A stretch of DNA of 64,000 nt from Oscillospiraceae bacterium (GTDB lineage: Bacteria > Bacillota > Clostridia > Oscillospirales > Oscillospiraceae). Under the pieces are notes generated by a model. That model made no database searches. It was not told the DNA's origin and saw nothing but the letters and a program-made list of their open reading frames with translations. Below, in pieces: positions 6,771-46,955 of the stretch. Position 1 is the stretch's first letter, and each line of letters opens with the position of its first letter. The stretch is from the NCBI GenBank assembly GCA_048201935.1, contig DBFBGR010000024.1:41322-105321 (forward strand). The letters run 5' to 3'. A program made the translations under genes and the position numbers.

Positions 6771-6798
6771 GGTTTTCTTCCTTTCTTTTTTGAGGCAC

Positions 6799-6920
6799 AA
6801 AAAAGCGCTCCGGCAGGAGCGCCCGCGTCCCTCCTTATCGTTGTCAGCGGAACCACCTTGCTTGACGCAGGTTGGTGTGGGGTCATGGAGCTGACTCTCT
6901 CGCCCACTCTTGATAACGGG
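6799..6920 (-). promoter_or_regulatory. SAM riboswitch (SAM-I-like core, apparently without a P4 hairpin) plus terminator, metK leader
   Basis: Minus-strand RNA: GUUAUCAAGAGUGGGCGAGAGAGUCAGCUCCAUGACCCCACACCAACCUGCGUCAAGCAAGGUGGUUCCGCUGACAACGAUAAGG. P1 is UUAUC/GAUAA; AAGAG, CCAACC...AAGGUGG (P3) and UUCC match SAM-I landmarks. Followed by GCGCUCC-UGCC-GGAGCGC-UUUUUU (plus 6800-6823) just upstream of the metK RBS. Confidence 0.75.
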
Positions 6921-7061
6921 GTATATTCAGTTGTTAAAAGTTATTCTACAATACCCGGCGAAAAAAGTCAAGCCCTGAAAAATTCATCCTTTCGCTATGG
7001 ACTTCCTTTCAAAAATGGGCTACAATAGGTACAATATTTCCCCACGAGAGGAGCGGCGCGG

Positions 7062-7937: not shown

Positions 7938-7938
7938 C

Positions 7939-33100: not shown

Positions 33101-36100
33101 GGCCCACCTTGGCCCCGGCGGTGCCGTCGGTGGTGACGGTCAGCTTGTAATAGGTGATGTCCTTATTGTTGTCCGCGGCGGTGGCGCTGGCGGTGAAGTT
33201 CACGCCGGTATACATCTGCCCCAGGCTGTTGTCGGTATTGGTGGCCCAGATATAATAGGTATCGCCCACCGTCAGCGCGTCGCTGGCCGTGGTGAACTTG
33301 AACTTATCCGTGCCGTCCTGGGTCAGGGTAATGGCCCCGGCGGTGGCGTCGCTGGCCGAGGTGCTCAGCACCACACTGCCGGTGAAGCCCACATAGTTGG
33401 CCGCCGTGCCGTCGTCCTTCTTCACCGTGATCACCGACTGGGTCTTCTGCTTGTCGAAGGTGACCTTGTAGGCGGTGGGCTTGTCGATGGCGTTCAGAGA
33501 ATAGGTGGCCCTGTTGCCGGCGACGCCCGGCGTACCCGACACGCTGGTGGCGGGCGAGGTGGCCTGGTCGGTCCAAGTAGCCTTATTCACGTCATAGGTC
33601 GTGGCAGGCTCCGCCACCAGCACGATACCGGTGGTACCCTTCAGGTATCCACCGTTCACACTGTTGGCGGTCGCACCGGTGACCTGCGCCGAGCTGGCCT
33701 TCACGCTGGCGTCGGTGCCGTCGACGGTCACACTGTAGTAATCCACCGTCTTCTCCACCGTCTCGCTGATGGCCAGGGTGAAGCCGGTCTTGTCCACGCA
33801 CACGCCGTCCACCCAGATATAGTACTTCTCACCGTCACCTGTAGCGGTGGCGTCGCCGGAATAGACGCTGGTCTTGGTGGGCGTGGTGTCACTGAGGCTG
33901 ACCGCGCCCGTAGTCCCGTCCGAATCACTCTTGGTCAGCACCACCGTGTGGGTCTTGGTGGTATCCGCCAAGGTGTCCAGGTTGATGGTCACCTTCACCG
34001 TCCCGGTGGTGATGGCGTTGACATAGTGGGCGGTCAGGGTCTGTCCGTTCCCGTCCGTGCCCGCCTTGGCCGTGTAGGTGCCATTCGTAAGGCCGGTGCC
34101 GCCGCCCAACGTGCCGCCGATACCGTCCTTCTTCGTCCAATTCACGAAGTTGAGATTGTCACTGCTATTCAGATCCTGCGCCTTCAGCGTGATGGTAGCG
34201 CCGTCAAGCACCAACGTGGCACTGGGGCCCTTCTCCGAGCTCCAGCCGCCGCCTGTAAACCGGCCCCGCTTTGCTGTGTTCGTAATGGCCGCGCTGGTAC
34301 TGTCGTTGTAGGCCGCAAGGGTGACCACCTGGGTGTCCACCCGCGCCGTCGTAGATGTGTAACTCACCGTCGCGCCTGTCTCCAGCGCGCCGTTGGCCGT
34401 ATAGCCAGCCGTGTCGTCCCCTGTGACCTCACCGAAAAGGACCTTATACTCCTTCTCCGGGTCCAGACCAGTAAAAGTATAGACGCCGCTGGCGACCGTG
34501 CCCTTGACCAGCGTGCCCGCGTCGTCCTTCAGCCAGACCACGTTTGCCGTGCTGTTCAGCACGCCGTCAGCATAAAGGCTCACCTCGGCGGTATAGGGCG
34601 ATTTGTAGGTCGCCTGCAGATCGCCGTTGGTCTTACCCACCTGGATGCTCTGGGTGGTTCCCGAGGAGGGAGTAATGTCGGTGGTAGCGTTGGGATAGGT
34701 CATCTTGCTGAAAACGTCGGTGCCATAGCTCTTGACGTTCACCGTCAGATTGGTAAACTGCGGCAGCGTATACACGTCGTCTTCAGTCTGAGATCTGTTG
34801 AGAGTGCTTACAGTATGGGTCCCGCCGTCGCTGATGGTCTCCGACATATAGAGATAAGACCTGTTGTTGTTGGCGGTGGCCCGGCCTAGGGGCACCTTAT
34901 TGGTCACCGTCCCCAGATAGACCGTCTGCTCCAGAACCTGGGCGTCACCCTCGTTGGTGTTGAAGGTGATCTTGGCGGTGTGGTCAGTGTCGGCATAGCA
35001 CACCACGCCATTGATAAGGATCTCCCACTCCGCACCCTTATCCAGCTTGACGTTCCACTGGTTGGTAAGCACCGAGTAGTTGGAGACCGTATACGAGTTG
35101 GTGGGCCTGCCCACCTGCCGGATCACCACGCTACCGCCGGCCCCGTCCGTCCCGGAGCCGATCTTGTTGGTTCCCTTGTCCGCGTTGTTCACGATGGTGG
35201 TCAGCTTGACCTCCAGCATGCTGTCCTCATAGGTGGCCGTCAGGTCACGGTCCTTGGTCATCTGTACGACGACCTGCTTCGGATTCCTCTCGTTAAAGAG
35301 GTCCCCGTCCTCCCGGCCAGTCCAATCCTTGATCTTATACGTAGTTTGCGTGGTATGGATCTCCGGCGCGATCAACGTCACCGCGGTATCCGGCATAAAG
35401 TAATTGAAGGTCGACGCGTCGGCGCCGATCTGCTTGGTGAATTGGTTGTCCCTGACGCCCGCGGGATCGCTCTTGTAGGTCAAATGATACAGCGTCACGT
35501 TGGCGGTAAATTTCCCGTTCTCGTCCTTCGTCACCATAATGCCGGTGTCCACACCGTCCACCACGATCGTCTCGCCCACGTTCACCGTGCCCGTATAGAC
35601 ATGCGTAGCGCCTGTGCTTGTCAGGGTCGGCGGGGTGGTGCCGTTGGAGGTGACCGTGTGCACCGTCGGCTCCGCACTCTTGGTGATCGCCTCGCCATCC
35701 GTATCCACCAGCGTGATGGTGACATCCGCAGTAGTGGCCACCGCCCAAATGTGGCCGTCCTTGTGCTCCGCCGCGGTGGTGTCCGAGGTACCCTGAATGG
35801 TACCCGTGGCGTTCAGTCGGTAGGTGTGCGCGCCGCCTCGGGTGGACTGGCCTACGGCCAGCATATTTGTGCCGGTGCTGTCAGAGCAGATGGGCACCTC
35901 ATAGCTCTCCCCCGGCGCCAGCGCCACCGGGATGGTAAAGCTCGTCCCAATGCTGCTGTCCAGACCGTAGTTTTTCGCATAACCCGTGCCCGCCGCGTCG
36001 GTATCCACCGCGGCGGGATGGGAAGTGGCCGGATTATAGCTAGTAACAAGGACCGATACCACCGCCGACCTGGCCATGGTCACCGTGATCTTCTCGATGG

Positions 36101-37040
36101 TCTTGCCGCTGATGTTCTTCACCTTCGCGGTGGTGATCTGTCCTGTATGCTTCTTCGCCACCGTCATCGGCGTATTGGTGATGGTGATCTCCAGCCCCGG
36201 GCCCTCCGCCACCTTCATCTCAAAGCTCAGATCTCCGATGACATAAGAGTTATCACCGAAGTAGTAGATGACCTTATAGGGGAGCGCCGAGGTGATCTTC
36301 GTTCCGCTTGCGTCATAGGCAGTCTCTGTACCGGCTACTAACTTTTCAATCAACTCATCCCGGGCCTTGGTAAAGCTATCATAACCGGTATTGTCTTGCT
36401 GTGGTCTTGCGGTCCCATCATAAATAATGCTACCACTGTCATTGAGAGCAAGTGCTTTACCGTCTGCGTATGTTACACTTCTGGCACGTGTTTGTGCCGC
36501 ATAGAGCGGATAAATATCTGCATAGGTCGTGTAGAACTCTCTACCCGTTAACACATTAGCACTCGGTATTAGATTTTCTGACGTGATAAGTCTGCTGTCT
36601 AATGTCGTTGTATCTTCATCTTTCTCTAAGCGAAAATTGGGGAAAATAGCAATAGTTACCGGTTGGGTACCTGCTCCGTTCGCGGTAATGGTCGCAATGT
36701 ATCCATCCCCGGCGTCATCTCCGGTCTTCATATTCTCCGACTTAAAAACATTGCCAGAACCGCCTACAGCATTACCATGGTCGCCGATGGCGGAGCCTTC
36801 TCCCTGCTCCCCGTCACCAGGGGTCGGGGTCTCCGGCCTCTCGTCGGAGGATGTGCCGCTAGACCCCGGCCGGGCATGGGTATCCACCACCCGGTCGGTC
36901 TTGTCCAGCACCGGGACCTCCACGCGAGCGCTCCCGGGGTCGTCCATGATCATGGCCGCCATGGCGTTCATAGGTAGCACAGATAGGAGCATGACGACGG
37001 CCAGGAATAAGCTCAGGCCCTTCTTCATGAGTTTCTTCAT
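12147..37040 (-). CDS. giant (8297 aa) Thr-rich, SLH-anchored repetitive cell-surface protein (putative fibrillar adhesin)
   Basis: Single uninterrupted 24.9-kb frame. ATG 37040 lies 8 nt after AAGGAGG. Signal peptide MKKLMKKGLSLFLAVVMLLSVLPMNAMAA. Dozens of beta-rich T/V/A/G modules, including many Flg_new-like units (YRFDKWQ, YIFQKWT, YRFVKWQ, LNFVNWT, FVEWT, RVVGWK). G7 linker, then Flg_new + 3 SLH repeats + conserved tail at the C-terminus. Confidence 0.9.
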   Translation of the reverse strand: MKKLMKKGLSLFLAVVMLLSVLPMNAMAAMIMDDPGSARVEVPVLDKTDRVVDTHARPGSSGTSSDERPETPTPGDGEQGEGSAIGDHGNAVGGSGNVFKSENMKTGDDAGDGYIATITANGAGTQPVTIAIFPNFRLEKDEDTTTLDSRLITSENLIPSANVLTGREFYTTYADIYPLYAAQTRARSVTYADGKALALNDSGSIIYDGTARPQQDNTGYDSFTKARDELIEKLVAGTETAYDASGTKITSALPYKVIYYFGDNSYVIGDLSFEMKVAEGPGLEITITNTPMTVAKKHTGQITTAKVKNISGKTIEKITVTMARSAVVSVLVTSYNPATSHPAAVDTDAAGTGYAKNYGLDSSIGTSFTIPVALAPGESYEVPICSDSTGTNMLAVGQSTRGGAHTYRLNATGTIQGTSDTTAAEHKDGHIWAVATTADVTITLVDTDGEAITKSAEPTVHTVTSNGTTPPTLTSTGATHVYTGTVNVGETIVVDGVDTGIMVTKDENGKFTANVTLYHLTYKSDPAGVRDNQFTKQIGADASTFNYFMPDTAVTLIAPEIHTTQTTYKIKDWTGREDGDLFNERNPKQVVVQMTKDRDLTATYEDSMLEVKLTTIVNNADKGTNKIGSGTDGAGGSVVIRQVGRPTNSYTVSNYSVLTNQWNVKLDKGAEWEILINGVVCYADTDHTAKITFNTNEGDAQVLEQTVYLGTVTNKVPLGRATANNNRSYLYMSETISDGGTHTVSTLNRSQTEDDVYTLPQFTNLTVNVKSYGTDVFSKMTYPNATTDITPSSGTTQSIQVGKTNGDLQATYKSPYTAEVSLYADGVLNSTANVVWLKDDAGTLVKGTVASGVYTFTGLDPEKEYKVLFGEVTGDDTAGYTANGALETGATVSYTSTTARVDTQVVTLAAYNDSTSAAITNTAKRGRFTGGGWSSEKGPSATLVLDGATITLKAQDLNSSDNLNFVNWTKKDGIGGTLGGGTGLTNGTYTAKAGTDGNGQTLTAHYVNAITTGTVKVTINLDTLADTTKTHTVVLTKSDSDGTTGAVSLSDTTPTKTSVYSGDATATGDGEKYYIWVDGVCVDKTGFTLAISETVEKTVDYYSVTVDGTDASVKASSAQVTGATANSVNGGYLKGTTGIVLVAEPATTYDVNKATWTDQATSPATSVSGTPGVAGNRATYSLNAIDKPTAYKVTFDKQKTQSVITVKKDDGTAANYVGFTGSVVLSTSASDATAGAITLTQDGTDKFKFTTASDALTVGDTYYIWATNTDNSLGQMYTGVNFTASATAADNNKDITYYKLTVTTDGTAGAKVGLGAASSVTTTAASVENYYLSGSKPYIVADASAGLFNFDKWALTNVTGTVGTYAAQQVTTTNKVGTATAGYTKVRFDATFTLRLDGAQPNVASGQPITGVKLVDKSGNTVASSKISTDTTTDTTAIIYTASGIESSGADYKWVVTTVSGDYEVTEVSGSANTNTSLALYSVHVTASGTGWSGATVKVAGQSTTAGTTAVGKADSSFVLGLTPASGYTQKTGTAAWTEDVTGHGTVGTTSYTSLVTTNWPTTGVTLTPNFSYEVHIVLKHGTTPIDASTITATGGFGSGGAATVTKTSGTGAYTISNLDPATTGKLTINGFESSTDVLKPGNAWNGTDTHDVAMYQIAVKKDPTASTGTVKVALGASISGSATEVYVPVGATTSSGNAQVSIQAAPTSTVGYRLRDNTKDGANTWAITDQAASNADSAAVTTPNAVASATFVTFDTISHDIDATAYFVLQREVDAKMDSTKGSATTIQVAAGSTGSVLASTSASTSDLTGNKIDDGDYMSVTTVPGDGIQLNYWTVTGTCTVHDGSNASAATLTADASGHYVTTGDVITVKPTGTDKVVVTAFYKQGEYPAQVTVKLDNAVRGGQTVELWKDGAKQYDLTETGANTGIYGNKVHVGTYNVYVGGENTGKTVTVTTANTVSSPATAEVNYYTVVLALGGGLTNASANVNVDHAASVGSTPTTSKIFLAKSGAQSNLSISASRNNHSGQGSDKKWYRFNSWTVSQYSNAGTDTDMVTVANKTKTGYSTTFTLPAEGALKNDLGITTSNQITLTANYQEQYKVTLQNDNKSGGDINKPTGTSVDDVTGPDASGNYALFVDTGDYVPVVTSPKATMRVVGWKVVSPTVAADVDFNKNSSGAKGDAIPADSNSYYVDTADRDHIMVTPKKDVTVKVFWEADNFTGTINLVRHDGTTAYTEGADRVRIELVDAATTGADTAKHQNWTGSTSTITRTSTSTNAWTDSALMNGHTYKVLVDGYDTGYTVSAGSASVTVKMFKVIIDTKIDGALNDGTTDYKPSDAKTKATIRGANAPITTAIPATGNLVYDLYVPETASNVVITMNASNAGAGLRLRNATKDGAGNTLWTTYETAMDGTVSTTAVSAVANADSQNTTLTFKTKDTGAITKDVTIYANYITVLTLQVQTPTPATGNVAGGTVEVTNGGTIASNKLSTAIDKDSVATVKATPTTATAMNDYAFVEWTKISGDGAWKKDAAGTAMDSGAVPGATAYYAPSQDTTLQASFKNLKASGDTITAAAATGVAWSNGVVFTIDAGYTTALTGSVDLANLATANTKQLTASIVAKTLGSGQTDGSSTITAGTIVTTNLNAVGGLDTGKKTTVPVSFGTGLGVGVYVADLKVTDGDVTVTVPVTVNVVNPAKFKVQIKTYPDGVTAPSGANITSVILVPTAGTEAKKAGNVTLTETSAGSGVWTAQVAWDGTYTVYVDGYATGTTNVNNTQVAGGAAQAEYDVKDLYTVQFSAAEYKDGSNVKGTPKFVTKPATVTGVSAATVVPANDTTAGALHAIVIPANGQITLTDGTNANASGSYHYRFDKWQQHVVSATASATDATVATGGAYTVDATAPSTTTNAPIFLDPQYVQQHKVTLKPAAVTLSGGTAPTGIGVTMTPTTTAAKTLAANGFIMVDDGEAITLSALTADPTDYIFQKWTATGSPTFGTGTGETANDRTAKFTPKADTELTPNYWIWPTVSPSSRTYYLGVATGATVPNTSITNAEPVYSWTANDATYEKLSYKKKGASGASTDLTLGTDYTVSTTGGVSTITLKDTFLKTLAKDTYELTFASKTPANGTQTDRKADLVIEVYQNKLTQTDVQVKGNASAVHAAPGAALEYVQHFHENILPGDLTWQWYRADKAPTQSLADSSDHNNSQAGHPNYNDAAAALTAASSGNSNVNAISGETSATLSAIPAAAEGQYVFAIVTASGTGSKAVITNAIAVDFDGTITVREDEVAVTETTQAAAEGRYKVWLIPDGTDPNATDISATTGAVQARYDTATHTYKTSGYGLVGGTTYKVYVNEVEGTFTEGKWRDQGTITPTAPTKTVDYYTLTLVDMGKEGWTEANKGTDTNAVHPYLVHAKDKNNAEVGEAWDYDNMPGLSATTVGNAITVPNGNAILKTTKVKAVSEKWSQDYNVDWYSDEAAVTGSATPTLAKKDADKTSTDANTNGYTMAVGITHATKITGQLKQNTYEVKGQVRATGGGQIASAQLAVMDGTTEKYVFEPSVAVTLSGGDAGVVTFKVPKSIAGAKVGEKYVLSAKGKTDPRSTVIGYSGAYTTFPSATNVPAQIGPLDVAVSAAAEKQFLIHVNASKWELKVEDDNTNKGGVANPSEDATIAKATATHTSVVTAEAGVKSKSAKTTWTKIFDNYNSTNDQLVYKVTVTNTANTNLDVTLALSEGGTAVDLSTISSGATGGTYTSAKNVTIAGLTDGGKFSLAANVGTNPANTKEFTVTIPTTLANADDVKYTFAFTSTETGTSGPDLVYGPSVTYELDLVVDPIPVASVGVSSTGNIHTYNNLTFQTGLDASKLDISDAAAAGSDVTFEWYAVDYTANPVLNTTTGAVTVGGAAASPISTGLSENNTKLDLTGVYNYAGKKLFVVAKGGNNASMAAMSDTIPGLRQVKIELFEDTTKKTGSSAPSGYELYYVEKGAAFDLSTATALTWDGTDAFAMDSVAGKEYDIYANIKGTQTAASKEFKKVLTIADSDFNAGGTYASERPKVVYQQLTINDTTVDNVYTGLSGAAFYKDDASDIPAAKPTATVPDTASGTIGVTTGQWVLKNSAVTLSYVAWDKDYDLNWTTALTATDDGPSTSAVTQSVSMSANQTVDTELKLNLYPIEVHVIGSGSVDVVTLSDGTNTFTTAATGGIQAIGGAESKINAGTNKTFQVPKGSYTATAKATAGTTLSGYNVPATGSTTATITTDDTTVTTDNKTFDVVLLSTGQKLRVSTDLSATGYGEALYSTAASDGELKQTVTLPYGYAQKDIVVTVANNSNLVSGTPQTIYDVTLDDSGIDGASGANGGKVSITNANLSGKPDMDGLLLSTTETISIAQGLTVGTYTAPVEFSFAHTDGGSDTAKVTYTLTIKVEPVEFVDVSMKYADGSTMGSFLVEDKDLALNEYETSTIDLFGKTSADPSYLTEGTDYHYAWYASADNTIANADLDWADASGTVTVNFKNSKTATEIGTQDQDLTDAVIQANQGKYIYLMIYATSNNKVVKAAISAPIRTGFQGVVRVKENATRYNAAADPAYTVTFTEGGNKVESTWTNLGTDADPDWAYVSDSYLDPSKTYAANASVGKAPLADEMVKVADVTVTAPATTAEYFTVTAVETVDKPYVEAVKETFSSHPSPEFTYTKADSSVVSVASGSNILKDQSVTAKFSDGGTAGDGKAWDQDYTLTWRDLQKNDQASATDNDLSDVTVSGNAVTETSATALTGRAWTITTKTFIGGRLDQNTYTVKGNISGTPGTVASVTMEDANGNVYTTETSGGINPAKTGGGYENGIANTNSNTETGDEGDTIIFKVVAGTYTITAVDGPSTTIQQMQWNSTTPVGGKTLTGASVTTAGNEFTVILAQSDIQLKVADQDAPTDHTATSTTSASSNYKQAKHTESVFYKELANHKGLHVDLYNPGNTDLTVSMELYKTSKTGLAAITDWSNTAQLGTAMTISGNAAQDPATGTAIVSFTGLLADDTPLAAGTEGDKDGNGSIDGNEKAAVSAATITINKDAVNTDDAVYILRYVSKNGDAAGPVVYYVLDFEVKPLPIVGVSAEAVSGGSVITTPPKTGDAVQLEDMSGTNQGFDKVLVDDDGKTTTAAVAANTKLVDGTDVKYAWFSAPTSMSKADFTASLSVASGAVSSNGTGVSALTTGKQHTLTNNDLGKNLYLVAYAPSDQVNASELAVSDAIATQKLVQIKVNVDGAAMAAADNASYTFKVHPLKGDGTADTTVDIAETWQGIDTTKDSYQLTIDVTKTYAVYAPITKGNTTTYVDTGLRLGKKDSAIVDEVTVPYWTVNYTPDVAVNSTYADFASALAGPLPSALGVKVSDAKSDAAYNTALTASGTPVLEGMYVQVDVNADTKNQAGNDDWKTKQHYTLNATDWAKNTNTTAFAYADATDVSGVKHVLSDGMKVESGIQNKTFSGKLTQNLYDVKFVITGSGKLKNVALDTTETVTSFSTKTVTKDAAGNDIANGGTVVFAQVPAGEYTISAVAETGTTLGKARFDGDTAADLPLTFTVDGDDDGLAADGSVATNATDSKPENYIDLLASTYYVQWQDNFTGSEQTTPDTGAFALSTGFAKAGLVYGAYAQKDYKVRLVNLGNAPIDGVTLTGAANASLTGNKTTASNIASEHTFDLDAVKVYAPKDGGGYDDVTATHVNATTKELTLPLGGYAEFDLSIPAPTFAPASPAYAAEVGDHGLRFQVGRTNDSAGNARSVTVVKNATGTPADNGGDYTPKYTVVKAPITLLKVTGIDAPVYGAVIDETHDELTAADTNLLPFPAVTDPDVTVVWSDGTNTLNSGDKFAPGREYTASVTFTPDGNHEFVNKYIADTGITPGDDDTPATGYTILGGKNSDTPVSVKKNADGTLTLTYTFPATAPALEVVASSLVPAGSNGLNEARKGKVDRLHVESDKAVDVYYIVVDQTPGDFDSNPGTPDTAPDAPADAKALLDLYKAGVSGTVEVVGRVANHTDADKDTGWAINGLKKNGTKYMVYAVALPKDTDLTDTAAAGALASAIASDSFTTPFRVEARLGTLDDPSNSSSVVAPAVINDAGAEQNKNVAFVQAADDKVIQAGAETNVDTGTVILGIQADNAFSFSIWQQVNNDDPDANGTRGSGAMSAKVDKGPVGTSHTRFENTFKPTANSTLEPAFGGIPALALEGDVRGNQIAKGNTNIPILDASSGGKAKNDGTLSIYDNAVLMITPKWLQKDDGSWVDMASDAGAAYFAELWKAGKLDDNKTPFFTVSNTGNTVHRADGSTDAADQKLGGNEYMDVTVYPGTADGTAELSAAWAKDHAYSAAGNPTGDRNVGYKAAEGTKGQPGYKEAYGIYDGVLWVYDPGNVADVMGADASVDEYSLFDKLPLQICIVDEGWVGLPLDIEWDLNPRAGGVGDKLGLVEYATSGLTNKHKDWSMEINAAGYADDASRQFAMVEGTIGGSAIDWDPDRIVPYAEWSLIPAVLGSTEWNKYGDQYRGFTYTKEELYKLAQTDGYSTAYAADGSQAGTPISAVRGDKATFELTLHNAGDDTTEPSSSTKSMSIKYIDTRPDVSITALNKSVSVGGVATATVGVQDHDGGPKANPSYGTHTNLTTYGTGTDADYDVTVRWFKVPSTFTFPASVGTDKAAQVKYLVDNAPTNDDITLVQESGGMGAPTGSDLLKYRPVADDKGCILYCTIQGDDIWYVGTDIAATYVGATVTIQAWRTGTQNDVSGTATSAEFTNSQDQKLTATAPDGTIFVDVANGDVKLTTGQLNTAKTHLFIKWADLVTEDLPGTETAAGGTFLDSTNPNNTKPNEMLKPFYHVGGNDPTVVAYYDLLPTLSKDQTYKLYDLDHSTAPVFDYVNNDGGDNVDDAVNDIVVTIRPKTGSAETILAINGASETTKPLTFVKDGSAVEDLDGAYTLSRDWLESGNVGVGAYVITFYDLTKGAKKLVDGKLVDKTAAEGGSSLYDPSVTLTIQADGYPFTAWTADHDDNAEDDVHDYWGSVSTTGDADDYGPEKQGNAPIGGAADIYAKPADGYRFVKWQLAMDDEGNVTDTKSVIGDATAAETTFQPGGPNARVEAVFEPADFGADTAAAKVYYGNNAFEATPGEMTITGDANSANQKFAIAIATADELKTAKVLDETADAKMLANITAASAWLGFADGQTTDDLAVGDTIGLKVTANATGVHVEKKTVDGKLVDVEDELKVYIKLTDKNTGVVKFVPYTVDVMTSPLTIDVPVAAADYVAAYLANKTTGDNTVIEDGDPVTLPPFLFKQVLNTKNATDVVVTPHEDEPTTHNSAGDTYNNGVWSVAPAKFNGLSGTPNADESAYTNSYTFTFTYTGILNSDTKEYENPYDYSYADAELDIEVKKPDVGLDFNDADHAKGAEAELAAHEWSNDYKNERVVVYYLDQIPEFFDVYLQNPGGKDLYDVALKVTSNTGKRVDGKTGNDRIGILSADGGTQFPSSASSSAFTTLDHLTRQSSDSATSHDNRAQAFRADLRGLKYAGEYTLKVNATGSTTQPAEASLMAADSVSADYTLIIKIVPRPIVLANVTGLGAAEVDQKVSDNVSKIVVKGQVLYRGDDSIDGSNLTNVSAKDDVDLINKGGDTEHGPENGLDINGLTRLGYKITWVELDENGNEKRELSADPETGDTFKPNTAYRVKLKLIPDPNYVFVRFATEDNETEDYFYFDPKDNGKDTGVEDNQRIDEEQVEYILETNTGVKVELHPEEDDTEPNKPIVIEKEQEGKIAQLKFDDVKVDAPTDTTGPKVDDARTVSVTKGSKPGVYKINLGAYVGNVDQVAVVDQEPELAVSGRLAQRKSTTDPETGATVYTNNWTLKRLDEPHDTLLEVDDDGKPVNKNTWELDLSGLDTSEAGSGVFVLVLTAQGVRAVDKAGLETEVVKASYTITVNITNPGGGGGGGVDPACPNQVTYLLGLYGTTTDPVMEMVADRGKVKTVPNVTALAGYKFLGWSLTGPTGDAQADAKRPLVDPKSVPIDGDTTFFAVYQPVYDLGRPFHEHYVIGYPNGNFGPGDNINRASVATIIARAVLPNFVEGADYGNPGGYSDVNDHWAASAIAYCSKYGVFKGYDDGTFKPDQSITRQELALVMARLSGVKSAKELPFTDMGDAGAWAVDGIYTAYANGWVNGYTDGTFKPLNPIRRDETVKIFNAYLNRGVNAEGLSKLTEYVHSGVASNVTENGTTEYMTWPDVTKDQWAYYEIIEAANDHEYVVDETLPTGYTVPETWDKCWIDEKWRYHDDLNDGGPTVGLLSAGFRVWNR

Positions 37041-37123
37041 CGTGGTGGTCCTCCTTAGGTTTGTTGGCATACGCCGGGTTTGATGGGTCCCGGCGCCGCC
37101 GGGGGTCAGGTCATTGTTTCATG

Positions 37124-40100
37124 TCAGGACGTGGTGTACTTCCACGCCCACTTGGCCTCGCACTCCGCCTTACATGTGGCGTCGTCGGGCAGCTCAGAGA
37201 GACTGTCACGGTGGATCAGCGCGTACTGGAACTGGTACCAGCTAGGCTCCTTGATGAGGGCCAGAGAGCTGGAGTCGATGTAGTCCCCGCCGTTGGCGCA
37301 CATGGAGATGGCGTCCATGGTGGTGATGATCATATCCATGGCGTCTGGGTTCCCCGCGAACAACTCCGCCGCGGTGATCACCGTGCCCGCGTCGTCACCG
37401 CGCAGCAACAGGGTGTCCTTCACCACGCTGTCATCCACCACAAAGGTGAACTCGCTGGCGTCCCACAGCTCATAGTAGGCTCCCGCCGACTGCATAAAGC
37501 TGCTCCAGGTCCCGGCGTCCACCGGGATCTCCGTCTTGTCGCCCGGATCGGGCTGCTCTCCGCCGCCTCCGCCACTGGTGTCATACTTCCAGTCCCACTT
37601 GGCCTCGCACTCCGCCTTACACGTGGCGTCGTCAGGCAGAATGGTCAGGCTGTCGCGGTGGATCAGCGCGTACTGGAACTGATACCAGGTAGGCGCCTTG
37701 ACAAGCGCCAGGGAGCTCATGTCGATGTAGTCCCCGCCGTTGGCGCACATGGAGATGGCGTCCATGGTGGAAATGACCAGGTCCATGGCGTCCGGGTTGC
37801 CTGCAAACAGCGCGCTGGCGGTGATCACCGTGCCCGCGTCGTCAGAGCGCAACAGCAGGGTGTCCTTGACGATGCTGTCGCTCAACGGGAAGGTAAACGC
37901 GCTGGCGTCCCACAGCTCATAGTAGGCGCCTGCCGAGCGCATAAAGTCGTTCCAGGTCCCCGCGTCCACCGGGATCTCCGTCTTGGTGGTCTCCTCGGGG
38001 GGCTCAGGGGGATCGGGGTCCTCTCCGCCGCCTCCGCCGCCGGTGCCGTACTTCCATTCCCACTTGGCCTCGCACTCCGCCTTGGCCGTAGCCTCGTCAG
38101 GTACCTCTGCCAGATTGTCCCGGTGGATCAGACAGTACTGGAACTGGTACCAGCTTGGCTCCTTGATGAGGGCCAGGGTACTGGAGTCGATGTAGTCCCC
38201 GCCGTTGGCGCACATGGAAATGGCGTCCATGGTGGTGATGATCATATCCATGGCGTCCGCGTTCCCCGCAAACAGCTCCGCCGCGGTGATCACCGTGCCC
38301 GCGTCGTCACCGCGCAGCAGCAGGTTGTCCTTCACCACCGTATCATTAAAGGGCGAGAAGGTAAAGGCCGCAGCGTCCCAGTTCTCATAGTAAGACCCCG
38401 CCGATTGCATAAATTTGCTCCAGGTGGTGGGGTCCACCTTGATCTCCGGCTTGGAGGGCGTGGGCGGCTCCTCGCCGCCGCTGGAGGTGCCGTATTTCCA
38501 GTCATACTTCTCCGCGCACTCCGCCTTGGCCTCCGCGTCGGTGGGCACCTTGGCCAGGCCATCCCGATGGATCAGGCAGTACTGGAACTGATACCAACTC
38601 AGAGGCTTCTTCAAGTCCAGGGTACTGGAGTCGATGTAGTCCCCGCCGTTGGCGCACATGGAAATGGCGTCCATGGTGGAGATGATCATATCCATGGCGT
38701 CCGGGTTCCCCGCGAAGAAGTCACTGGAACGGATCTCCGCCCCCGCCTCGTTGGCCCGCAGCAGAAGCACGTCCCGGATCACCTTGTCGTTGATGGGCGA
38801 GAAGGTGAAGGCGCTGGCGTCCCAATCCCGGTAGTAGGCCCCCGCCGATGTCATAAAGTCGTTCCACTTGGCCTCGTCCAGGGGCAGCTCTTCCTTTTCC
38901 GGAGGAGGCGGCGTGGGCGGGGTCTCCCCGGAGTCGTATTTCCACTCATACTTGTTCTGACACTCCGCCTTGGCCTCCGCGTCGGTGGGCACCTTACCAA
39001 GACTGTCCCGGTGGATCAGACAGTACTGGAACTGATACCAGCTCAGCTCCTTGATAAGGTCCAGTGTGCCCGGGTCGATGTATTCGCTGCCGTTGCTGCT
39101 CATGGCAATGGCGTCCATGGTGGAGATGATCATATCCATGGCGTCTGGGTCACCCGCAAAGAAGTCACTGGCGCGGATCTCCGTCCCCGCGTCGTCCAAA
39201 CGCAGCAACAGCTCGTCCCGGATGACCTTGTCATCCAAAGGCGAGAAGGTAAAGGAGCCGGCGTCCCAATCCCGGTAATAGGCCCCCGCTGACTGCATAA
39301 AGTCGCTCCACTGAGCCGGGTCGATGGGCTTTTCCTTCCGCCCGCCCGGCTCAGGCTTGCTGTCCAGCGTGAACCACCAATAGCTGTCCACCGGGTTTTC
39401 CGGGTCGGTGGTGTCGATGACCTCCGCCTTCACGTCGTCATCCGATTTATATGCGCCGCCCAGCAGCATATACTGCAGTTGGTAATTGGTCATGCTGGTG
39501 GCCTGGTCGTAGGTGATACCCGACTTCAGCACCGTCTCCAGCACCGCCAGGAAGGAGTCCACATCGGCAAACTCCGCGCCCTCGCTGTCGCTGCGCAGCG
39601 CAAGGCCAGTCCCCCGCTTGTTGATGAAGTCCACGCTCTGGGGCATCTCATCCAGCGCACGGTCCGTGGTGGTCCCCGCGCCGTCGCCCACGTAATAGAG
39701 CCAGGCGGCCTTCAAAAGGCTCTCCTGGTCGGTGATGGCAGGGCCTCCCTCCCCCTGCCACCAGTAGCTATCCGGGATGCTGGCGGCGGGAAGGTAGGTG
39801 TTGGCGTTCAAAATGGCGTACTGCAGCTCCTTGGCCAGGTCCGCCTCACTCTTGGTCCCTACAGTAGCGCTGGTGTAGGGGAAATTCGCGATGGCGTCCA
39901 GCACGAGCTGCTTCGCCTGGGCCGGGGTAGTGGCGGACGGGTAGGGGATGCCCCGCTCATCCTTCCAGATGCCCAGGTCGGTCAGATCCTGGACCGTCAA
40001 CTTGTCCAGCGCCGTGGACAGCAGCCCCTCCTTCACCCACAGCCCGGCGGTGAAGAGGTCGGTGATGCTCTCGATGTCCATGGGCTGGCTGGGGCTGCCC

Positions 40101-43100
40101 CCGTCCTTCCACCAGTAGTCGATACTGGGGTCGGCCAAAATGGCGTTCTTGTCCGGCTGGGTGACGCCGCCCCCCAGGTCCTTATAGTTCAGCAGCAGCC
40201 ACTGGAACTCCTCCCACTCCATGGTGAGGGTCTGGCCATCGTCGCCAAAGAACTTGGGGTCGCTGCCGCTAGTATACAGGGCCACCAGTGCGTCCAGCGC
40301 CACGCTCTTAAAGTCGTCCACGCTGTCAAACTTGCCCATGGGGTCGGTCTTGCGGAAATAGAACTCATTGTTGATGAGGCCGATCCCGTCCTCCAGGAGC
40401 TCGTTCAGACTGGTGTCCGAGCCGGTAAAGCCATACTCGCTCACCGCCGCCAGCAGGTCCTCCAGCTTCACCGCCGGCTCCCCGCCGTCGTTCCAGTAGA
40501 GGTCCTTGCCCTTCAGCGGGCCCTCCGCTGTGCCGCTGGTCTCCGCCTCGATGTCGGCCGGGCTCTTGTATGTCCCGGTCATCACCGCGTACTGCAGCTC
40601 CTCCCAGGATATCAGCTTGAGCTTGTCCACGCTGTCATATCCGCCGCCGCCGGCGCTCTTGGGCTTGGCCAGTACCTCCAGAGCCTTCTTCCAGGCCGTG
40701 GCGAACTCGTCGGCGTCGGCAAACTTCACCGCCTCGTCGTTGCTGTCCAGCTCCTTGCGCAGCCAGCCCATGTCCGCGTAGTCCCCGGTCTCCATCCCCT
40801 CCACGTGCCCGCCGATCATCCAATCCAGCTGGGTGGGGGTGACGTTGGCCGCGGTAAAGTTCTCAAAGGCGTGGGGCACCTTGGCGTCCGGCGTCCCATC
40901 CCCGTTCATGTCCACGCCCACATACTCCAGATAGGAGTACTTCAGCACCTCTTCCCAGGTCGCGGGGGTAGGCGGCGTGCCATAGGGCTTGCCGGGACTG
41001 GGCTCCCACCAGATATTCAGCGTGGCCGGAGCGCTGGCGCCCATGCGGTTGTAGATGATCTCCTCCTGGACCTGGCTCCAGGTCACCGTGGTCCAGTCCG
41101 GGTCCGCCCCCAGGGTGGGGGCCAGGGAGGCCACCGCATCGTCCAGGTCGTCCAAAATAGCCTGCTTCAGCGCCGCGTCGGTGGTGGCGCTGTCGTAATC
41201 ATAGGGCACGCCGTCGGCCTGCATCCGGTAGCCAAAGCCGTTGAGGAAGGAGGCCGTCACCCCCGTGGTGGTGGTCCCGTTGCCGTAAAGGGCGTCGTAG
41301 GCCTTTTTGTAGTCGTTGCTGGTGGTAGGCTTGGTCTGGATCATATAGAGCGCCGTCAGCACGTCGCTGGCGGTGTTGATCTCCATCTTGATGTCCCCCA
41401 CGCAGTTGTCCATCCGGCACCAGGTAAAGCCCGCGCAGGCGCTGTCGCTCATCAAATTGGTCCCGTCAAAGATGCCGTTGGGATTCCCCGCGGCGCACAT
41501 GACAATATGCCGCTGGAGCTGATGCCAGGTCAGCTCCACGTTGCCCTTCTTGTTGTAGATCCCCGCCGGAGCGGTGGCCGGGTCCGGGTAGGCCGCTACG
41601 ATGGCGTCCACCAGATTCTGCGTATAGGTGACACACCGGGTGCGGTTGAGCGCGGTAATTGCGCTATTCTCATCCAGTTTGAGGTTCAAATCGTTAATGG
41701 TCGCCAAGGTCATCGCGGTGGAGAGCTGGCTCGTGGTATCTCCTCGGGCAGCGGCGGTGGCCACCTCCATGAGCTGGTGAAGGGTCCCCTGGGTGACAAA
41801 TCCGTCCGTCCCCTGCCGCTCCTCGTAGGGCACGCTGTCCCCCGAGCCGTCCACCTTTTCGTAGTCAAAGTTGTTCTTCAGATTCAGCTCCCCGCCGTTA
41901 GACCGGTGCTCACCTGTGACAATATTATAGCCCTCATAGTGGTCCACGAGAACATAATCCACTCTCCAAATTACGCCGCCGGCGGTCAGGTCGATGTCCA
42001 TGAGGTCCTTGTTGTAGGCGATGTTCTTCACGTAAAACGCCTTGGTGTCCGTGGAGGGGTCCAGATCCTTGTCCTCGGTGTCAAAGGCGTTCACGTCGTA
42101 GGTCAGGCCCGCCTGCACCGCCGGGTCCCGGGTCCGCCGCACCCCCTGCCAGTCCCCGTAGAGGTCGGTGGCCCGCTGGTACTGGTACTGAAAGGAAAAG
42201 GTGGAATCCTGGGTGGAGGCGTTGTAACCGTACCGGGTCACATAGAGGCTATTGTCCACCGTAGTATACATTTCGTCCGGCAGCAGGTCAGCCCCCGGCT
42301 CATACACCGCCTTGACAATGAGCACATCCTGGCCCGGTTTGAGCAGGCTGTCAAAGTCGCTAAAATCAGCAAAGCGCAGATACCGGCTGGCATCCGCACT
42401 GGAGGTTTTATAGTCATAATGGCTGGGGCTGGTCAGAGCCGCCGACAGTCCCCCAGGCTGGAACTCGATAGTCCCCCCAGGCAGGGCCTGCACCGGCGAG
42501 CCCTTGTCGGTATAGTTCGGCTCGTGCGTACCCAGTTCGCCTGCGCCAAAGGTGGTCCAGGTGTTCTCCGTCTTCACCGAGTCCTTCAGGACCTCCCAGT
42601 TCTCCCCCGCCACCTCGATCTTGGTGTTGGCCGGGTCCTCCACAATGGCCCAGCCGTAGATATACGGATACTTCCCCGCCTCCGGGTCGTCGTTGGGCTT
42701 GGCCACGGTGTAGTACTTCTCCACCGTGTCCTTGTCCATGTTGGTGGGGTCGGCGGGGTCGGGGGTGCGCAGGGTGTTGACGATGTTCATCCGCTTGTAG
42801 AACACATAGTCCAGCTTGTTGGTCAAGGGATAGTCGTCCCCGTTGGCCACCTTCAAAGCGTCGCCGCCGTTCAACTGATAGGGATACTTGGAGCCGCGGT
42901 AATTGAACTCCCGGTCCAGGGTGTTCACCACGTTTTCGTAGTTCGCCAGTGCGGTGGGGTCGGTGGGCAACTCGCCGCCGTTCAAATACTGGCTGGCCCG
43001 CAGGTCGGGGTGGATGAAGTTGCGCTCCACGTAGGAGTTGACATCCTTGCGCACGTCGCCGCCCTTGACCACCTGGGCGCCGATGAGTTCGTCGGTGTAG

Positions 43101-44551
43101 TCGTAGTAGAGGATAATGAACTTGCCGCCATCTCCGCGGGGCGCACGGAAGGTGGGGGCGTTCACCATCTTCAGCTTCAATCCACGGCCCTCGGCGGGGC
43201 CATCCAGGTAGAGCAAATTGCTGTAATAGCTGTACCCCGCGCCGGTCTGGGGGTTCTCCTGGTCGCCGTGGCCCAGGACCTTCACGCCCTGGGTGGAGGG
43301 AATGCGGATGTGCTCCACATCCTGGATACCCGTAGGCGTGGACACGCTCACCGTGCCGTCGGGGTCGGAGGCGTCAGAACCCGCCACGGCGTTGGCGCCG
43401 AGGTAGTAATAATATTCCGTTTGGGTCCAGTCCACCGGGGCCCCGGCGGTATCCTTGCTGGAGAGTTTGGTCCATACCGTCTGGCCCGCCTCGGTGGCGG
43501 CGGCCAGGCCGTCGGAGTATGCAAAATTGCCGCCCTGGGCGGTGTCGGCCAGCCAAGTCAGCGGCGTCTTGCCGTCGTTGAGGAGATAGGCGTTGGCCCG
43601 GTCCAGGCCCAGCCAGAAGCCCTCAGGCTTGGCGGCGTCGTTCTCGCCGGTGATCTGATGGTTGATATTGGCGTTATTGTAGGCGGCGTTGACCATGACG
43701 GTGTTCTTGGGGAAACGCTTGAGGTCATAGCTAAACCGGACCACCACCACAGGGGTGGAGGTCTTGAACACCACAGGCTTATTGTCCGGCGCGTGAGCCG
43801 ACAAGGTCACCAGCGCCGTTTTGGTGTTGGTGGCGGTATCCTCGTAGTACTGGTCCACCTGGGCCGCCGCGGTAAAGGCGCTGCGGTCCCCCTCGGCGTC
43901 CAGGGCGATGGCGTTGGGCCGGGGCTTCTGCAGCGTGGCCTGGGTCACGTCGGGGAAGGGGTCGGGGTCGGCGGGGCCCCACACCTCGGGATCCACGTTA
44001 TCTGCCAAAACAATGCCCCTGGGATAGGCGGCATCCTGGTCGGCGTAGCTGGCGCCGTCCCACTCGCTGTATGTAACAGACTCCACGTCCCAGTGGACCG
44101 CAGTGAGGACATCGGTATTGACCCCCACCACCGCCGAGGCGGCGGAGAAGGGATAGTAGGTCACGGTATAGTCGGTCTCGGCCACCCCGGCAGTCCCGGT
44201 CTCGATATCGGCCAGAGCCTGGGCATACTCCGCCTCAGAGAGCTCCTTTTCCGAGCCGGTGGCATAACCGGCTGCAGGGTCGGGGCCATAGATGCGCCGG
44301 GGCGAGCGGACGCACAGGGCCAGCTCGTAGAAGCCCGTAGGCGCGCCGTTGTCGTCCACCACCACATTGCCTTGGATGGTGACCTCAGGCTTGTTCTGGA
44401 GCGTTGCCTGGGGGATCACGCCGTGATCGGCCGCGGCCAGGGCAGGCGTGGCAAACAGCAGGGCGGCCAACAACAGCGCCAGCAGGCCTCCGGTCCTCGG
44501 AAGCCTCTGCCGCAACGCGTTCCATATGCAGTTGAGTTTCTGTGTCCGCAT
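37124..44551 (-). CDS. 2475-aa secreted protein; C-terminal half built from a ~150-aa Trp/Cys-containing repeat of unknown family
   Basis: ATG 44551 lies after AGGTGAGGG. Signal peptide ...GGLLALLLAALLFATPALAAA. No SLH, LPXTG or TM anchor seen. Five near-identical C-terminal repeats plus at least 6 degenerate ones sharing W-x2-(L/F)Q(Y/W) and YWW motifs. Confidence 0.85.
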   Translation of the reverse strand: MRTQKLNCIWNALRQRLPRTGGLLALLLAALLFATPALAAADHGVIPQATLQNKPEVTIQGNVVVDDNGAPTGFYELALCVRSPRRIYGPDPAAGYATGSEKELSEAEYAQALADIETGTAGVAETDYTVTYYPFSAASAVVGVNTDVLTAVHWDVESVTYSEWDGASYADQDAAYPRGIVLADNVDPEVWGPADPDPFPDVTQATLQKPRPNAIALDAEGDRSAFTAAAQVDQYYEDTATNTKTALVTLSAHAPDNKPVVFKTSTPVVVVRFSYDLKRFPKNTVMVNAAYNNANINHQITGENDAAKPEGFWLGLDRANAYLLNDGKTPLTWLADTAQGGNFAYSDGLAAATEAGQTVWTKLSSKDTAGAPVDWTQTEYYYYLGANAVAGSDASDPDGTVSVSTPTGIQDVEHIRIPSTQGVKVLGHGDQENPQTGAGYSYYSNLLYLDGPAEGRGLKLKMVNAPTFRAPRGDGGKFIILYYDYTDELIGAQVVKGGDVRKDVNSYVERNFIHPDLRASQYLNGGELPTDPTALANYENVVNTLDREFNYRGSKYPYQLNGGDALKVANGDDYPLTNKLDYVFYKRMNIVNTLRTPDPADPTNMDKDTVEKYYTVAKPNDDPEAGKYPYIYGWAIVEDPANTKIEVAGENWEVLKDSVKTENTWTTFGAGELGTHEPNYTDKGSPVQALPGGTIEFQPGGLSAALTSPSHYDYKTSSADASRYLRFADFSDFDSLLKPGQDVLIVKAVYEPGADLLPDEMYTTVDNSLYVTRYGYNASTQDSTFSFQYQYQRATDLYGDWQGVRRTRDPAVQAGLTYDVNAFDTEDKDLDPSTDTKAFYVKNIAYNKDLMDIDLTAGGVIWRVDYVLVDHYEGYNIVTGEHRSNGGELNLKNNFDYEKVDGSGDSVPYEERQGTDGFVTQGTLHQLMEVATAAARGDTTSQLSTAMTLATINDLNLKLDENSAITALNRTRCVTYTQNLVDAIVAAYPDPATAPAGIYNKKGNVELTWHQLQRHIVMCAAGNPNGIFDGTNLMSDSACAGFTWCRMDNCVGDIKMEINTASDVLTALYMIQTKPTTSNDYKKAYDALYGNGTTTTGVTASFLNGFGYRMQADGVPYDYDSATTDAALKQAILDDLDDAVASLAPTLGADPDWTTVTWSQVQEEIIYNRMGASAPATLNIWWEPSPGKPYGTPPTPATWEEVLKYSYLEYVGVDMNGDGTPDAKVPHAFENFTAANVTPTQLDWMIGGHVEGMETGDYADMGWLRKELDSNDEAVKFADADEFATAWKKALEVLAKPKSAGGGGYDSVDKLKLISWEELQYAVMTGTYKSPADIEAETSGTAEGPLKGKDLYWNDGGEPAVKLEDLLAAVSEYGFTGSDTSLNELLEDGIGLINNEFYFRKTDPMGKFDSVDDFKSVALDALVALYTSGSDPKFFGDDGQTLTMEWEEFQWLLLNYKDLGGGVTQPDKNAILADPSIDYWWKDGGSPSQPMDIESITDLFTAGLWVKEGLLSTALDKLTVQDLTDLGIWKDERGIPYPSATTPAQAKQLVLDAIANFPYTSATVGTKSEADLAKELQYAILNANTYLPAASIPDSYWWQGEGGPAITDQESLLKAAWLYYVGDGAGTTTDRALDEMPQSVDFINKRGTGLALRSDSEGAEFADVDSFLAVLETVLKSGITYDQATSMTNYQLQYMLLGGAYKSDDDVKAEVIDTTDPENPVDSYWWFTLDSKPEPGGRKEKPIDPAQWSDFMQSAGAYYRDWDAGSFTFSPLDDKVIRDELLLRLDDAGTEIRASDFFAGDPDAMDMIISTMDAIAMSSNGSEYIDPGTLDLIKELSWYQFQYCLIHRDSLGKVPTDAEAKAECQNKYEWKYDSGETPPTPPPPEKEELPLDEAKWNDFMTSAGAYYRDWDASAFTFSPINDKVIRDVLLLRANEAGAEIRSSDFFAGNPDAMDMIISTMDAISMCANGGDYIDSSTLDLKKPLSWYQFQYCLIHRDGLAKVPTDAEAKAECAEKYDWKYGTSSGGEEPPTPSKPEIKVDPTTWSKFMQSAGSYYENWDAAAFTFSPFNDTVVKDNLLLRGDDAGTVITAAELFAGNADAMDMIITTMDAISMCANGGDYIDSSTLALIKEPSWYQFQYCLIHRDNLAEVPDEATAKAECEAKWEWKYGTGGGGGGEDPDPPEPPEETTKTEIPVDAGTWNDFMRSAGAYYELWDASAFTFPLSDSIVKDTLLLRSDDAGTVITASALFAGNPDAMDLVISTMDAISMCANGGDYIDMSSLALVKAPTWYQFQYALIHRDSLTILPDDATCKAECEAKWDWKYDTSGGGGGEQPDPGDKTEIPVDAGTWSSFMQSAGAYYELWDASEFTFVVDDSVVKDTLLLRGDDAGTVITAAELFAGNPDAMDMIITTMDAISMCANGGDYIDSSSLALIKEPSWYQFQYALIHRDSLSELPDDATCKAECEAKWAWKYTTS
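37127..39328 (-). repeat. five in-frame tandem coding repeats, period ~444-465 bp (~134-aa core + Gly/Pro/Glu linker)
   Basis: The landmark CCGCCGTTGGCGCACATGGA(G/A)ATGGCGTCCATGGTGG recurs near 37290, 37737, 38202 and 38646, with a diverged copy near 39095. Protein unit: W.(D/S/K)FM.SAGAYY..WDA..FTF......V.D.LLLR...AG..I....(L/F)FAG.(P/A)DAMD.(I/V)I.TMDAI(S/A)M(C/S).NG..YID...L.L.K..(S/T)WYQFQY.LIHRD.L...P..A..KAEC..K(Y/W).WKY. Confidence 0.9.
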
Positions 44552-44608
44552 TGCCCTCACCTGCGTTTCTCGTCAGCCTTTTCTAGCCGCTCTGCCTATC
44601 GTCTCGTC

Positions 44609-46831: not shown

Positions 46832-46955
46832 CGCGCTCACATCCCTTCGGCCCTAGAGTGGCAAGCGGTCAGACAAATTTCGCCGCGCCCGTTTTCTTCC
46901 AGATATTACCAGCTTTTAGCTGTGTTCATGGCATAAAGACACAGTTTCATGATTG

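Follow-up and report, generated by a model that had tools for sequence, protein, structure and literature searches.

A previously undescribed helical repeat domain of a secreted Oscillospiraceae protein and of phage tail-region proteins

The DNA analyzed in this work is a 64,000-nucleotide stretch (hereafter the window) of the genome of an Oscillospiraceae bacterium (GenBank assembly GCA_048201935.1, contig DBFBGR010000024.1, positions 41,322 to 105,321 of the forward strand); positions given below are those of the window unless another sequence is named. Its minus strand encodes a 2475-amino acid (aa) secreted protein (hereafter the repeat protein) that carries no recognizable cell-surface anchor and that was singled out in a prediction made from the sequence alone (the original prediction). 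From residue ~929 to its end the repeat protein consists of eleven units of a single domain, which is predicted to be compact, mostly alpha-helical and ~125-130 aa long and was previously undescribed. Single copies of the same domain are found in proteins encoded in the tail and lysis regions of phages and prophages. Tentatively, we interpret the array as a multivalent module that would retain the protein non-covalently on the envelope of its own cell.

Eleven units of one domain

The last 731 residues of the repeat protein are filled by five tandem units of 130-131 aa each, separated by linkers of 17-25 aa rich in Gly, Pro, Glu and Thr (Table 1); at the DNA level, Tandem Repeats Finder reported the array at 37136-39310 with a period of 444, 4.8 copies and 75% matches. 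Pairwise identity among the five is 63-84% in protein and 72-84% in DNA, so that the term "near-identical" used for them in the original prediction was too strong, although its estimate that the last two units differ at about one residue in six agrees with the measured value (83.8% protein identity between units 4 and 5), and the conserved motifs it quoted are present with minor deviations in units 1, 3 and 4. Synonymous divergence (dS) between units is 0.47-0.80 and the ratio of nonsynonymous to synonymous divergence (dN/dS) is 0.22-0.41; judged by these rates, the five are old duplicates under purifying selection. The units are strongly acidic (17.6% Asp+Glu versus 7.1% Lys+Arg). When the unit profile was run against the rest of the window, the giant protein of the adjacent gene (see below) included, it gave no further copy.

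Upstream of these five units lie six degenerate units, d1 to d6, which abut without linkers. They were confirmed by profile-profile comparison (hhalign) of column blocks taken from an alignment of 14 homologues (blocks at residues ~900-1060, 1061-1195, 1196-1362, 1363-1490, 1491-1606 and 1607-1735). Mutual hhalign probabilities among d2 to d6 are 88-99%. Unit d1 matched the profile of the C-terminal units at 96.2% (E 2.5e-9) and d2, d4 and d6 at 93-94%; d2 matched the C-terminal units at 92.6% and d3 to d6 at 98-99%; and d4 matched the C-terminal units at 97.5%, with an independent E-value (i-E) of 3e-21 in an iterated profile hidden Markov model (HMM) search. Unit d5 reached only 1.9% against the C-terminal profile and 22% against d1, but 88-98% against d2, d3, d4 and d6. 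Six control blocks from the N-terminal region of the protein never exceeded 0.9%. Two further comparisons point to the same region: a self-BLAST of the protein aligned residues 1096-1750 with 1516-2189 (E 6e-12), and an HMM iterated over 51 homologues recovered residues 929-1025, 1105-1165, 1272-1341, 1367-1484, 1516-1601 and 1647-1729. An HMM built from the five C-terminal units alone misses the degenerate copies, its only extra match being to residues 1303-1329 (i-E 0.059); iteration over homologues and profile-profile comparison were required to recover them. At its end each internal unit has (D/S)YWW or a similar motif (IWW in d2, YWN in d3), the counterpart of the W-x-W-K-Y with which the C-terminal units close. 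The "at least six" weaker upstream copies of the original prediction were thereby borne out as six, and by these profile comparisons the total is eleven units.

A second public scaffold (L034) is 100% identical to the window over 21 kb. It contains a 100-N gap (L034 positions 9889-9988) corresponding to window position ~38672, inside unit 2, at a 63-nt exact repeat of units 2 and 3; on both sides of this gap the sequence matches the window at 100% identity, and in the window the two flanks adjoin, the scaffold lacking no bases by comparison. The array itself is real; the count of five C-terminal units derives from a single path through a short-read assembly. That the array is an artefact of a collapsed, expanded or chimeric repeat, as the short-read metagenome origin of the assemblies and the position of the L034 gap exactly at the 63-nt repeat might suggest, is very improbable, because the units differ at 16-28% of nucleotides and the longest exact stretches common to them are 19-63 nt, below typical read length, because the reading frame is intact across all five units with mostly synonymous differences, and because orthologues from other assemblies also carry 1-3 such units.

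Searches of sequence and structure libraries assigned the unit to no characterized family. With the whole protein, Pfam (hmmscan, E<=0.1) gave only a sub-threshold MLLE_2 match (E 0.026), and with 44 diverse units it gave no family at E<=0.01; NCBIfam and the PADLOC defence models gave no match, and profiles of Protein Data Bank (PDB) sequences queried with the unit (alignments A1 and A3) and with the whole family (alignment A2) gave no significant match. The only significant library match was to the phage family phrog_5648 of PHROG (a 78-aa profile, function unknown), with E 4.4e-10 for the whole protein, profile positions 31-74 aligning to residues 1798-1841 in the middle of a unit; against a single unit the same profile gave only E 0.25. 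A structure of unit 5 predicted by AlphaFold2 from an alignment of the 44 units had a predicted local distance difference test score (pLDDT) of 96.6 and a predicted template modelling score of 0.91, with helices at unit positions 4-20, 32-38, 52-55, 65-75, 96-108 and 115-125 and two small hairpins. Foldseek comparison of this model with the PDB (best E 2.9, template modelling score (TM) <=0.28) and with the viral structure database BFVD (best E 2.4) returned nothing beyond TM 0.3, and the predicted fold can be termed new relative to these two databases only. An earlier model from a five-sequence alignment (pLDDT 70, residues 23-59 below 50) was discarded along with its Foldseek result. That the unit falls into no recognized family, as the original prediction had it, held up in all of these searches, and neither of the two outcomes named beforehand as contradicting it, a match to a characterized family or an artefactual array, was found. 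From the dN/dS ratios and the confidence of the model, the unit is judged to be a real domain under selection.

The hallmarks of the unit are a helix with the motif (S/T)W-x-x-(F/L)-Q-Y, which contains an invariant Gln, and the terminal W-x-W or YWW motif. Gln100 alone is invariant across the 44 units; at least 90% of them retain Tyr101, Pro113 and Trp128, and 73-82% retain Trp7, Leu41, Arg42, Phe56, Trp96 and Leu103. Cysteines do not follow this pattern. In the original prediction three conserved Cys were proposed to form a disulfide or metal site; within the five C-terminal units only the Cys of the ..AEC.. motif occurs in all five, a second lies at position 102 (units 1-3) or 118 (units 4-5), and a third is missing from one of them. 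Among the 44 diverse units, Cys is absent from 12 and occurs once in 18. Its most conserved column, position 118, holds Cys in 21 units, and the three positions at which the window units have it do so in only 6, 3 and 6. Cys is not conserved across the family and therefore a disulfide or metal site is not a family feature. Two known classes were considered for the unit and rejected: a lysozyme-like or lytic-transglycosylase enzyme (no invariant Asp or Glu among the 44 units; best lysozyme-type Foldseek match E 2.9, TM 0.24) and a cohesin, dockerin or X module (no Pfam match; Foldseek 4iu2_B at E 5.5 and TM 0.17, which is noise).

Occurrence in Oscillospiraceae and in phages

Whole-protein searches returned at least 50 homologues of 1650-2300 aa, with E-values down to 0 and none with a Pfam annotation for this region. 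They form a family of secreted Oscillospiraceae proteins of ~1500-2300 aa, the C-terminal half of which is made of repeated helical units with WYxFQY and YWW motifs. The sources are metagenomes and metagenome-assembled genomes (MAGs) of gut Oscillospiraceae and Clostridia from mouse, rabbit, ruminants and human, and distant relatives occur in the cultured species Vermiculatibacterium agrestimuris (DSM 112226) and Pseudoflavonifractor phocaeensis. The distribution of the unit is narrow: an exhaustive HMMER search of 1.84 billion cluster representatives with the unit profile matched 73 clusters only, nearly all within this protein family or fragments of it. A word-indexed protein search with the unit profile found only the phage protein P0001 and missed the diverged units of the orthologues, which were recovered by whole-protein search and local HMMs; likewise, a scan of a genome collection with the single protein found no relatives, and an alignment-based scan did find them.

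In every locus examined (the window, L002, L003, L034 and 13 further loci), a giant open reading frame (ORF) lies directly downstream of the repeat-protein homologue on the same strand, so that the position directly upstream of a giant gene, remarked on in the original prediction, is a conserved arrangement. In closer relatives the downstream ORFs are homologous to that of the window and encode 7000-8300 aa in other MAGs, and the giant proteins diverge fast (27-34% identity). Among distant relatives including Pseudoflavonifractor phocaeensis (L013, L015, L016 and L017), the homologue is flanked by two giant ORFs, both of which run off the end of the locus with 1163-3214 aa visible; this suggests larger surface clusters with multiple giant genes in these organisms.

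Within a single protein the C-terminal units share 63-95% identity, whereas mean identity between the units of different orthologues is 21-35%, the whole proteins of orthologues being 29-53% identical. The C-terminal units have thus been amplified or homogenized separately in each lineage. Orthologues carry 1, 2, 3 or 5 units of the C-terminal type, and the A3 HMM detects 1-7 units in members of the family.

Among the short proteins matched in the cluster-representative search, five with a single unit were examined, and all are encoded in late tail or lysis regions of phages or prophages. P0001 (210 aa) has a collagen-like tail fibre and a CHAP lysin as neighbours; P0060 (497 aa) is encoded after a tape-measure-like gene and two large genes for tail proteins and before an Amidase_2 endolysin; P0076 (653 aa) is next to a beta-helix protein and XkdX; P0081 (229 aa) is accompanied by a 1035-aa gene, a 731-aa gene and XkdX; and P0105 (264 aa) by Amidase_2, holin and integrase genes, with a diversity-generating retroelement nearby (genes for Mtd_N and RVT_1 proteins at L033 positions 4021-7994, immediately upstream of the P0105 gene). 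The position of the unit varies between these proteins, of which the small P0081 and P0105 consist mostly of it. Of all known units, those of P0060 (protein identity 56-71% and DNA identity 70-75% to the five) and P0001 (50-58% identical) are most closely related to the window units, units of orthologous bacterial proteins being at most 42% identical. The P0060 unit (L025 positions 6361-6753, within a gene at 5632-7125) forms an island of high GC content at third codon positions (GC3), with 0.64 versus 0.21-0.25 in the flanks, the window gene having 0.85. This GC3 island points to a recent transfer of the module from a gene of a high-GC bacterium into a phage tail gene. Scans of IMG/VR with P0060, A1 and a back-translated WYEFQY pattern revealed no unit-bearing viral contig (four pattern matches were due to chance), and a search of INPHARED with P0060 matched only non-unit parts of two phages.

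Anchorless secretion and a possible role for the array

An N-terminal signal peptide, identified by direct reading of the sequence, is the sole hydrophobic segment of the repeat protein. The C-terminus (...AKWAWKYTTS) has neither an LPXTG motif nor a second hydrophobic segment, and the only LPxTG-like string, at residue 20, lies within the signal peptide. No SLH domain was found in the repeat protein with Pfam at E<=0.1, whereas in the same window the giant protein (1.8e-27) and two neighbouring proteins (6.9e-25 and 1e-18) matched as positive controls; CW_binding_1, CWB2, LysM, SH3b/GW and PG_binding were likewise without a match in the repeat protein (hmmscan of Pfam, E<=0.1). The absence of a recognizable anchor stated in the original prediction was therefore upheld. 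Going by these matches, SLH domains anchor surface proteins in this organism, and the repeat protein is without them.

In the mechanism proposed here, the secreted protein would comprise, after its signal peptide, a conserved N-terminal "business end" of 900 aa and the eleven-unit array, six old, abutting and diverged copies being followed by five younger copies on flexible Pro/Gly/Glu/Thr linkers. After secretion the array would bind a component of the cell's own envelope, for which a wall glycan and the co-encoded giant SLH-anchored protein are candidates, and would so hold the protein at the surface beside the giant protein, with many weak sites in series providing avidity. Phages of these bacteria would have captured single copies into proteins of the tail-fibre region, where the domain would recognize that same ligand on the surface as the phage adsorbs. 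We give this account, in which the binding is inferred, somewhat less than an even chance of being correct. The multivalent binding scaffold suggested in the original prediction has become plausible, because the unit occurs singly in phage tail-region proteins and because C-terminal amplification took place separately in each lineage. Also in favour of the account are the missing anchor of a protein from an SLH-rich neighbourhood, the conserved pairing of its gene with the giant gene, the closeness of the P0060 and P0001 units to those of the window, and the module transfer indicated by P0060. Tail and lysis regions of Gram-positive phages are the usual site of receptor-binding and wall-glycan-binding modules. 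An array with flexible linkers and a variable number of units (1, 2, 3 or 5) has a layout typical of binding arrays, and the divergence of units between lineages is what would be expected, from the sequences, of modules tracking a lineage-variable surface ligand.

Several observations weigh against this account. The acidity of the units (17.6% Asp+Glu) makes it less likely that they bind anionic wall polymers by simple electrostatics. The linkerless internal units would also fit a structural rod, and the conserved residues Q100, R42, H105, W7, W96 and W128 could, in the model, form either a surface site or part of the core. A structural relative of the predicted fold among cellular proteins is possible, the comparison having covered the PDB and BFVD. 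Lastly, the phage contig with the closest unit (P0060) has 44% GC and may not infect the organism of the window, which has 63.5% GC.

The closest analogy to the proposed mechanism is with the choline-binding repeats (CW_binding_1) of pneumococcal surface proteins and phage lysins such as Cpl-1, which form tandem wall-binding arrays, hold anchorless proteins non-covalently and are common to host and phage proteins. Those repeats are, however, ~20 aa long and build a beta-hairpin solenoid, whereas the unit described here is ~130 aa, globular and helical; they have no sequence similarity to it (Pfam, E<=0.1) and are known in the endolysin, whereas here the phage copies are in tail-region proteins. 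SLH domains (PF00395) are, like the unit, helical and tandem, bind the secondary cell-wall polymer non-covalently and are the anchor system of this organism, but SLH modules are ~55 aa long and usually come in threes, and they are matched by the neighbouring proteins at E 1e-18 to 1e-27 and not by the repeat protein. The CWB2 modules (PF04122) of Clostridioides difficile and the GW/SH3b modules of Listeria InlB and Ami also bind wall polymers non-covalently in multiple copies at one end of large secreted surface proteins of Firmicutes; their alpha/beta (CWB2) and SH3-like (GW/SH3b) folds have no sequence match to the unit, and no PDB structure matched it with Foldseek. On the phage side, the carbohydrate-binding modules (CBMs) of the distal tails of Gram-positive siphophages ("evolved" Dit and Tal proteins and accessory baseplate proteins) are single accessory modules at variable positions of tail-tip proteins, encoded just upstream of the lysis cassette and exchanged in a modular fashion, in which they would resemble the GC island of P0060; known siphophage CBMs are beta-sandwiches, in contrast to the helical unit, which has no structural neighbour in BFVD or the PDB. 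The phage family phrog_5648 is consistent with the phage link but extends over only about one third of the unit and is without functional annotation. The unit represents a new sequence and fold family, most probably in a known role, that of a cell-surface-binding repeat module.

An alternative is that the units are adhesin-type modules for external targets such as host mucin, dietary polysaccharide or other cells, with the protein acting as a released or loosely held adhesin or substrate-capture protein and the phage copies serving adherence to mucus in place of host recognition. All sources of the family are gut metagenomes or MAGs, the array is multivalent, flexible, rich in conserved aromatic residues and unanchored, and accessory glycan-binding domains are known on phage virions. 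The phage copies, however, lie in tail-fibre or lysis-proximal genes and not in capsid-decoration genes, the tight, conserved linkage to a wall-anchored giant points to a cell-surface role, and the divergence of units between lineages fits a ligand specific to the bacterial lineage better than a host or dietary glycan common to all of them. We regard external targets as unlikely.

A sub-case of retention on the envelope, narrower than the account favoured above, is that the unit is a docking module, either cohesin-dockerin-like or homotypic, that attaches to the giant SLH-anchored protein or to other copies of the array and is mimicked by phages. The two genes are strictly conserved as a pair, probably within one operon, and the giants and the units both diverge fast, which is compatible with co-evolving partners. 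No partner motif was identified, however, the unit profile has no other match in the window and none in the giant protein, and the unit has no similarity in sequence or fold to cohesin, dockerin or X modules; docking onto these partners seems rather unlikely. A similarly low probability is assigned to its most far-reaching form, a new-fold docking module of an undescribed surface-assembly system of gut Oscillospiraceae, in which arrays would attach an effector of 2000 aa to the giant SLH-anchored fibre, by contacts of units with the giant protein or with each other much as in cohesin-dockerin pairs, and phages would steal lineage-matched copies as a receptor dock, driving lineage-specific turnover and amplification of C-terminal units.

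It is equally doubtful that the array has no ligand of its own and is a passive spacer or rod that projects the 900-aa N-terminal domain or, in phages, stiffens a fibre. Giant surface proteins often have stalks built from repeats, the six internal units adjoin without linkers and are poorly conserved beyond core hydrophobic and aromatic positions, and most conserved positions of the unit are hydrophobic and core-like. A rod would nonetheless require an anchored end, of which none is recognizable; the flexible linkers of the C-terminal units do not make a rigid stalk; the phage proteins hold a single copy at varying positions, which accounts for most of the small P0081 and P0105; and the invariant Gln together with the well-conserved Arg and His suggests a functional site.

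The Oscillospiraceae abound in the gut; most of them are uncultured, and their cell surfaces are almost unstudied. The domain family defined here is absent from Pfam, NCBIfam and the PDB, and it links an operon for an 8300-aa wall-anchored protein and its 2000-aa anchorless partner with phage tail-region proteins. If the unit is a surface-binding module, it would offer a handle for predicting phage-host pairs in this clade and a probe for an unknown envelope ligand, and would be a further case of phages borrowing wall-targeting modules from their hosts.

Gene features and neighbourhood

Table 1. Coordinates of the repeat-protein gene, its parts and neighbouring features in the window
Feature	Position	Strand	Residues	Remarks
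Repeat-protein gene	37124..44551	-		2475-aa secreted protein; ATG 44551, stop 37126-37124
Signal peptide	44435..44551	-	4 to ~42	ends in ...LLALLLAALLFATPALA, followed by AAD
N-terminal region	41777..44434	-	~43-928	conserved, non-repetitive, function unknown
Degenerate unit d1	41381..41776	-	~929-1060	core TWHQLQRHIVMC; hhalign
Degenerate unit d2	40976..41380	-	~1061-1195	TWSQVQEEIIY ... IWW; hhalign
Degenerate unit d3	40475..40975	-	~1196-1362	SWEELQYAVMTG ... YWN; longer insert
Degenerate unit d4	40091..40474	-	~1363-1490	EWEEFQWLLLNY ... DYWW; best-preserved internal unit
Degenerate unit d5	39743..40090	-	~1491-1606	AKELQYAILNA ... SYWW; most diverged unit
Degenerate unit d6	39329..39742	-	~1607-1744	NYQLQYMLLGG ... 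SYWW; includes linker to unit 1
C-terminal unit 1	38936..39328	-	1745-1875	
C-terminal unit 2	38492..38884	-	1893-2023	
C-terminal unit 3	38048..38440	-	2041-2171	
C-terminal unit 4	37583..37972	-	2197-2326	
C-terminal unit 5	37136..37525	-	2346-2475	used for the AlphaFold2 model
Giant gene	12147..37070	-		8307 aa from first ATG; downstream of repeat-protein gene
Upstream gene	44609..46840	-		743-aa protein; right-handed beta-helix and Listeria-Bacteroides repeat matches
SLH-protein genes (two)	9135..10847 and 10965..12131	-		directly downstream of giant gene
Terminator-like hairpin	47064-47019	-		19-bp stem and T run, after prfB; strong

The in-frame ORF of the repeat protein extends to an upstream GTG at 44560 (37124..44560), from which residues are numbered, the Met being residue 4. 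A AGGTGAGGG ribosome-binding site lies directly 5' of ATG 44551, which is the likely true start and yields the product of 2475 aa given in the original prediction; a public gene call of this length (P0134) is 100% identical to it.

The N-terminal region is the best-conserved part of the family (14-sequence alignment A2, with many invariant columns), with motifs that include GFYELALC and PLTNKLDY. It had no match in Pfam, NCBIfam, PHROG or the PDB, is free of internal repeats and is not duplicated in the rest of the window, and, together with the low values of the control blocks, this agrees with its earlier description as non-repetitive over ~950 aa. A C-terminal toxin domain followed by an immunity gene, as in polymorphic toxins (WapA-like), is absent: unit 5 forms the end of the repeat protein, and the giant gene comes next. 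In a distant homologue of 2229 aa (P0039), the C-terminal ~110 aa behind a Pro-rich tail form a barnase-type RNase (PF00545), a sequence match that suggests toxin-like C-terminal cargo in some members of the family.

The giant protein likely starts at ATG 37040, behind an AAGGAGG ribosome-binding site, which would give ~8297 aa. It has a signal peptide, 13.9% Thr, ~8000 aa without a Pfam match and, at its C-terminus, a segment resembling Listeria-Bacteroides repeats and SLH domains. One of the two SLH proteins encoded downstream of it also has Y_phosphatase3 and SAM_HAT_C domains. An equivalent of the 743-aa upstream gene is present in L002 and L034 and absent in L003. No terminator comparable to the hairpin behind prfB was found between the 743-aa gene, the repeat-protein gene and the giant gene, and from this arrangement the three probably form one transcription unit with the 743-aa gene first. 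The further flanking genes in the window are housekeeping genes. The literature on giant Oscillospiraceae genes gave no lead other than the RCC1-repeat giants, which belong to a different gene family (bioRxiv 10.1101/2023.11.21.568195).

Long antisense ORFs overlie real genes at 39479..44713 (plus strand, 1744 aa), 37061..39292 (plus strand, 743 aa) and 28293..34889 (plus strand, 2198 aa), and arise as a by-product of the high GC content. The gene calls of L034 contain the 1744-aa antisense ORF together with a fragment of 511 aa in place of the true 2475-aa gene.

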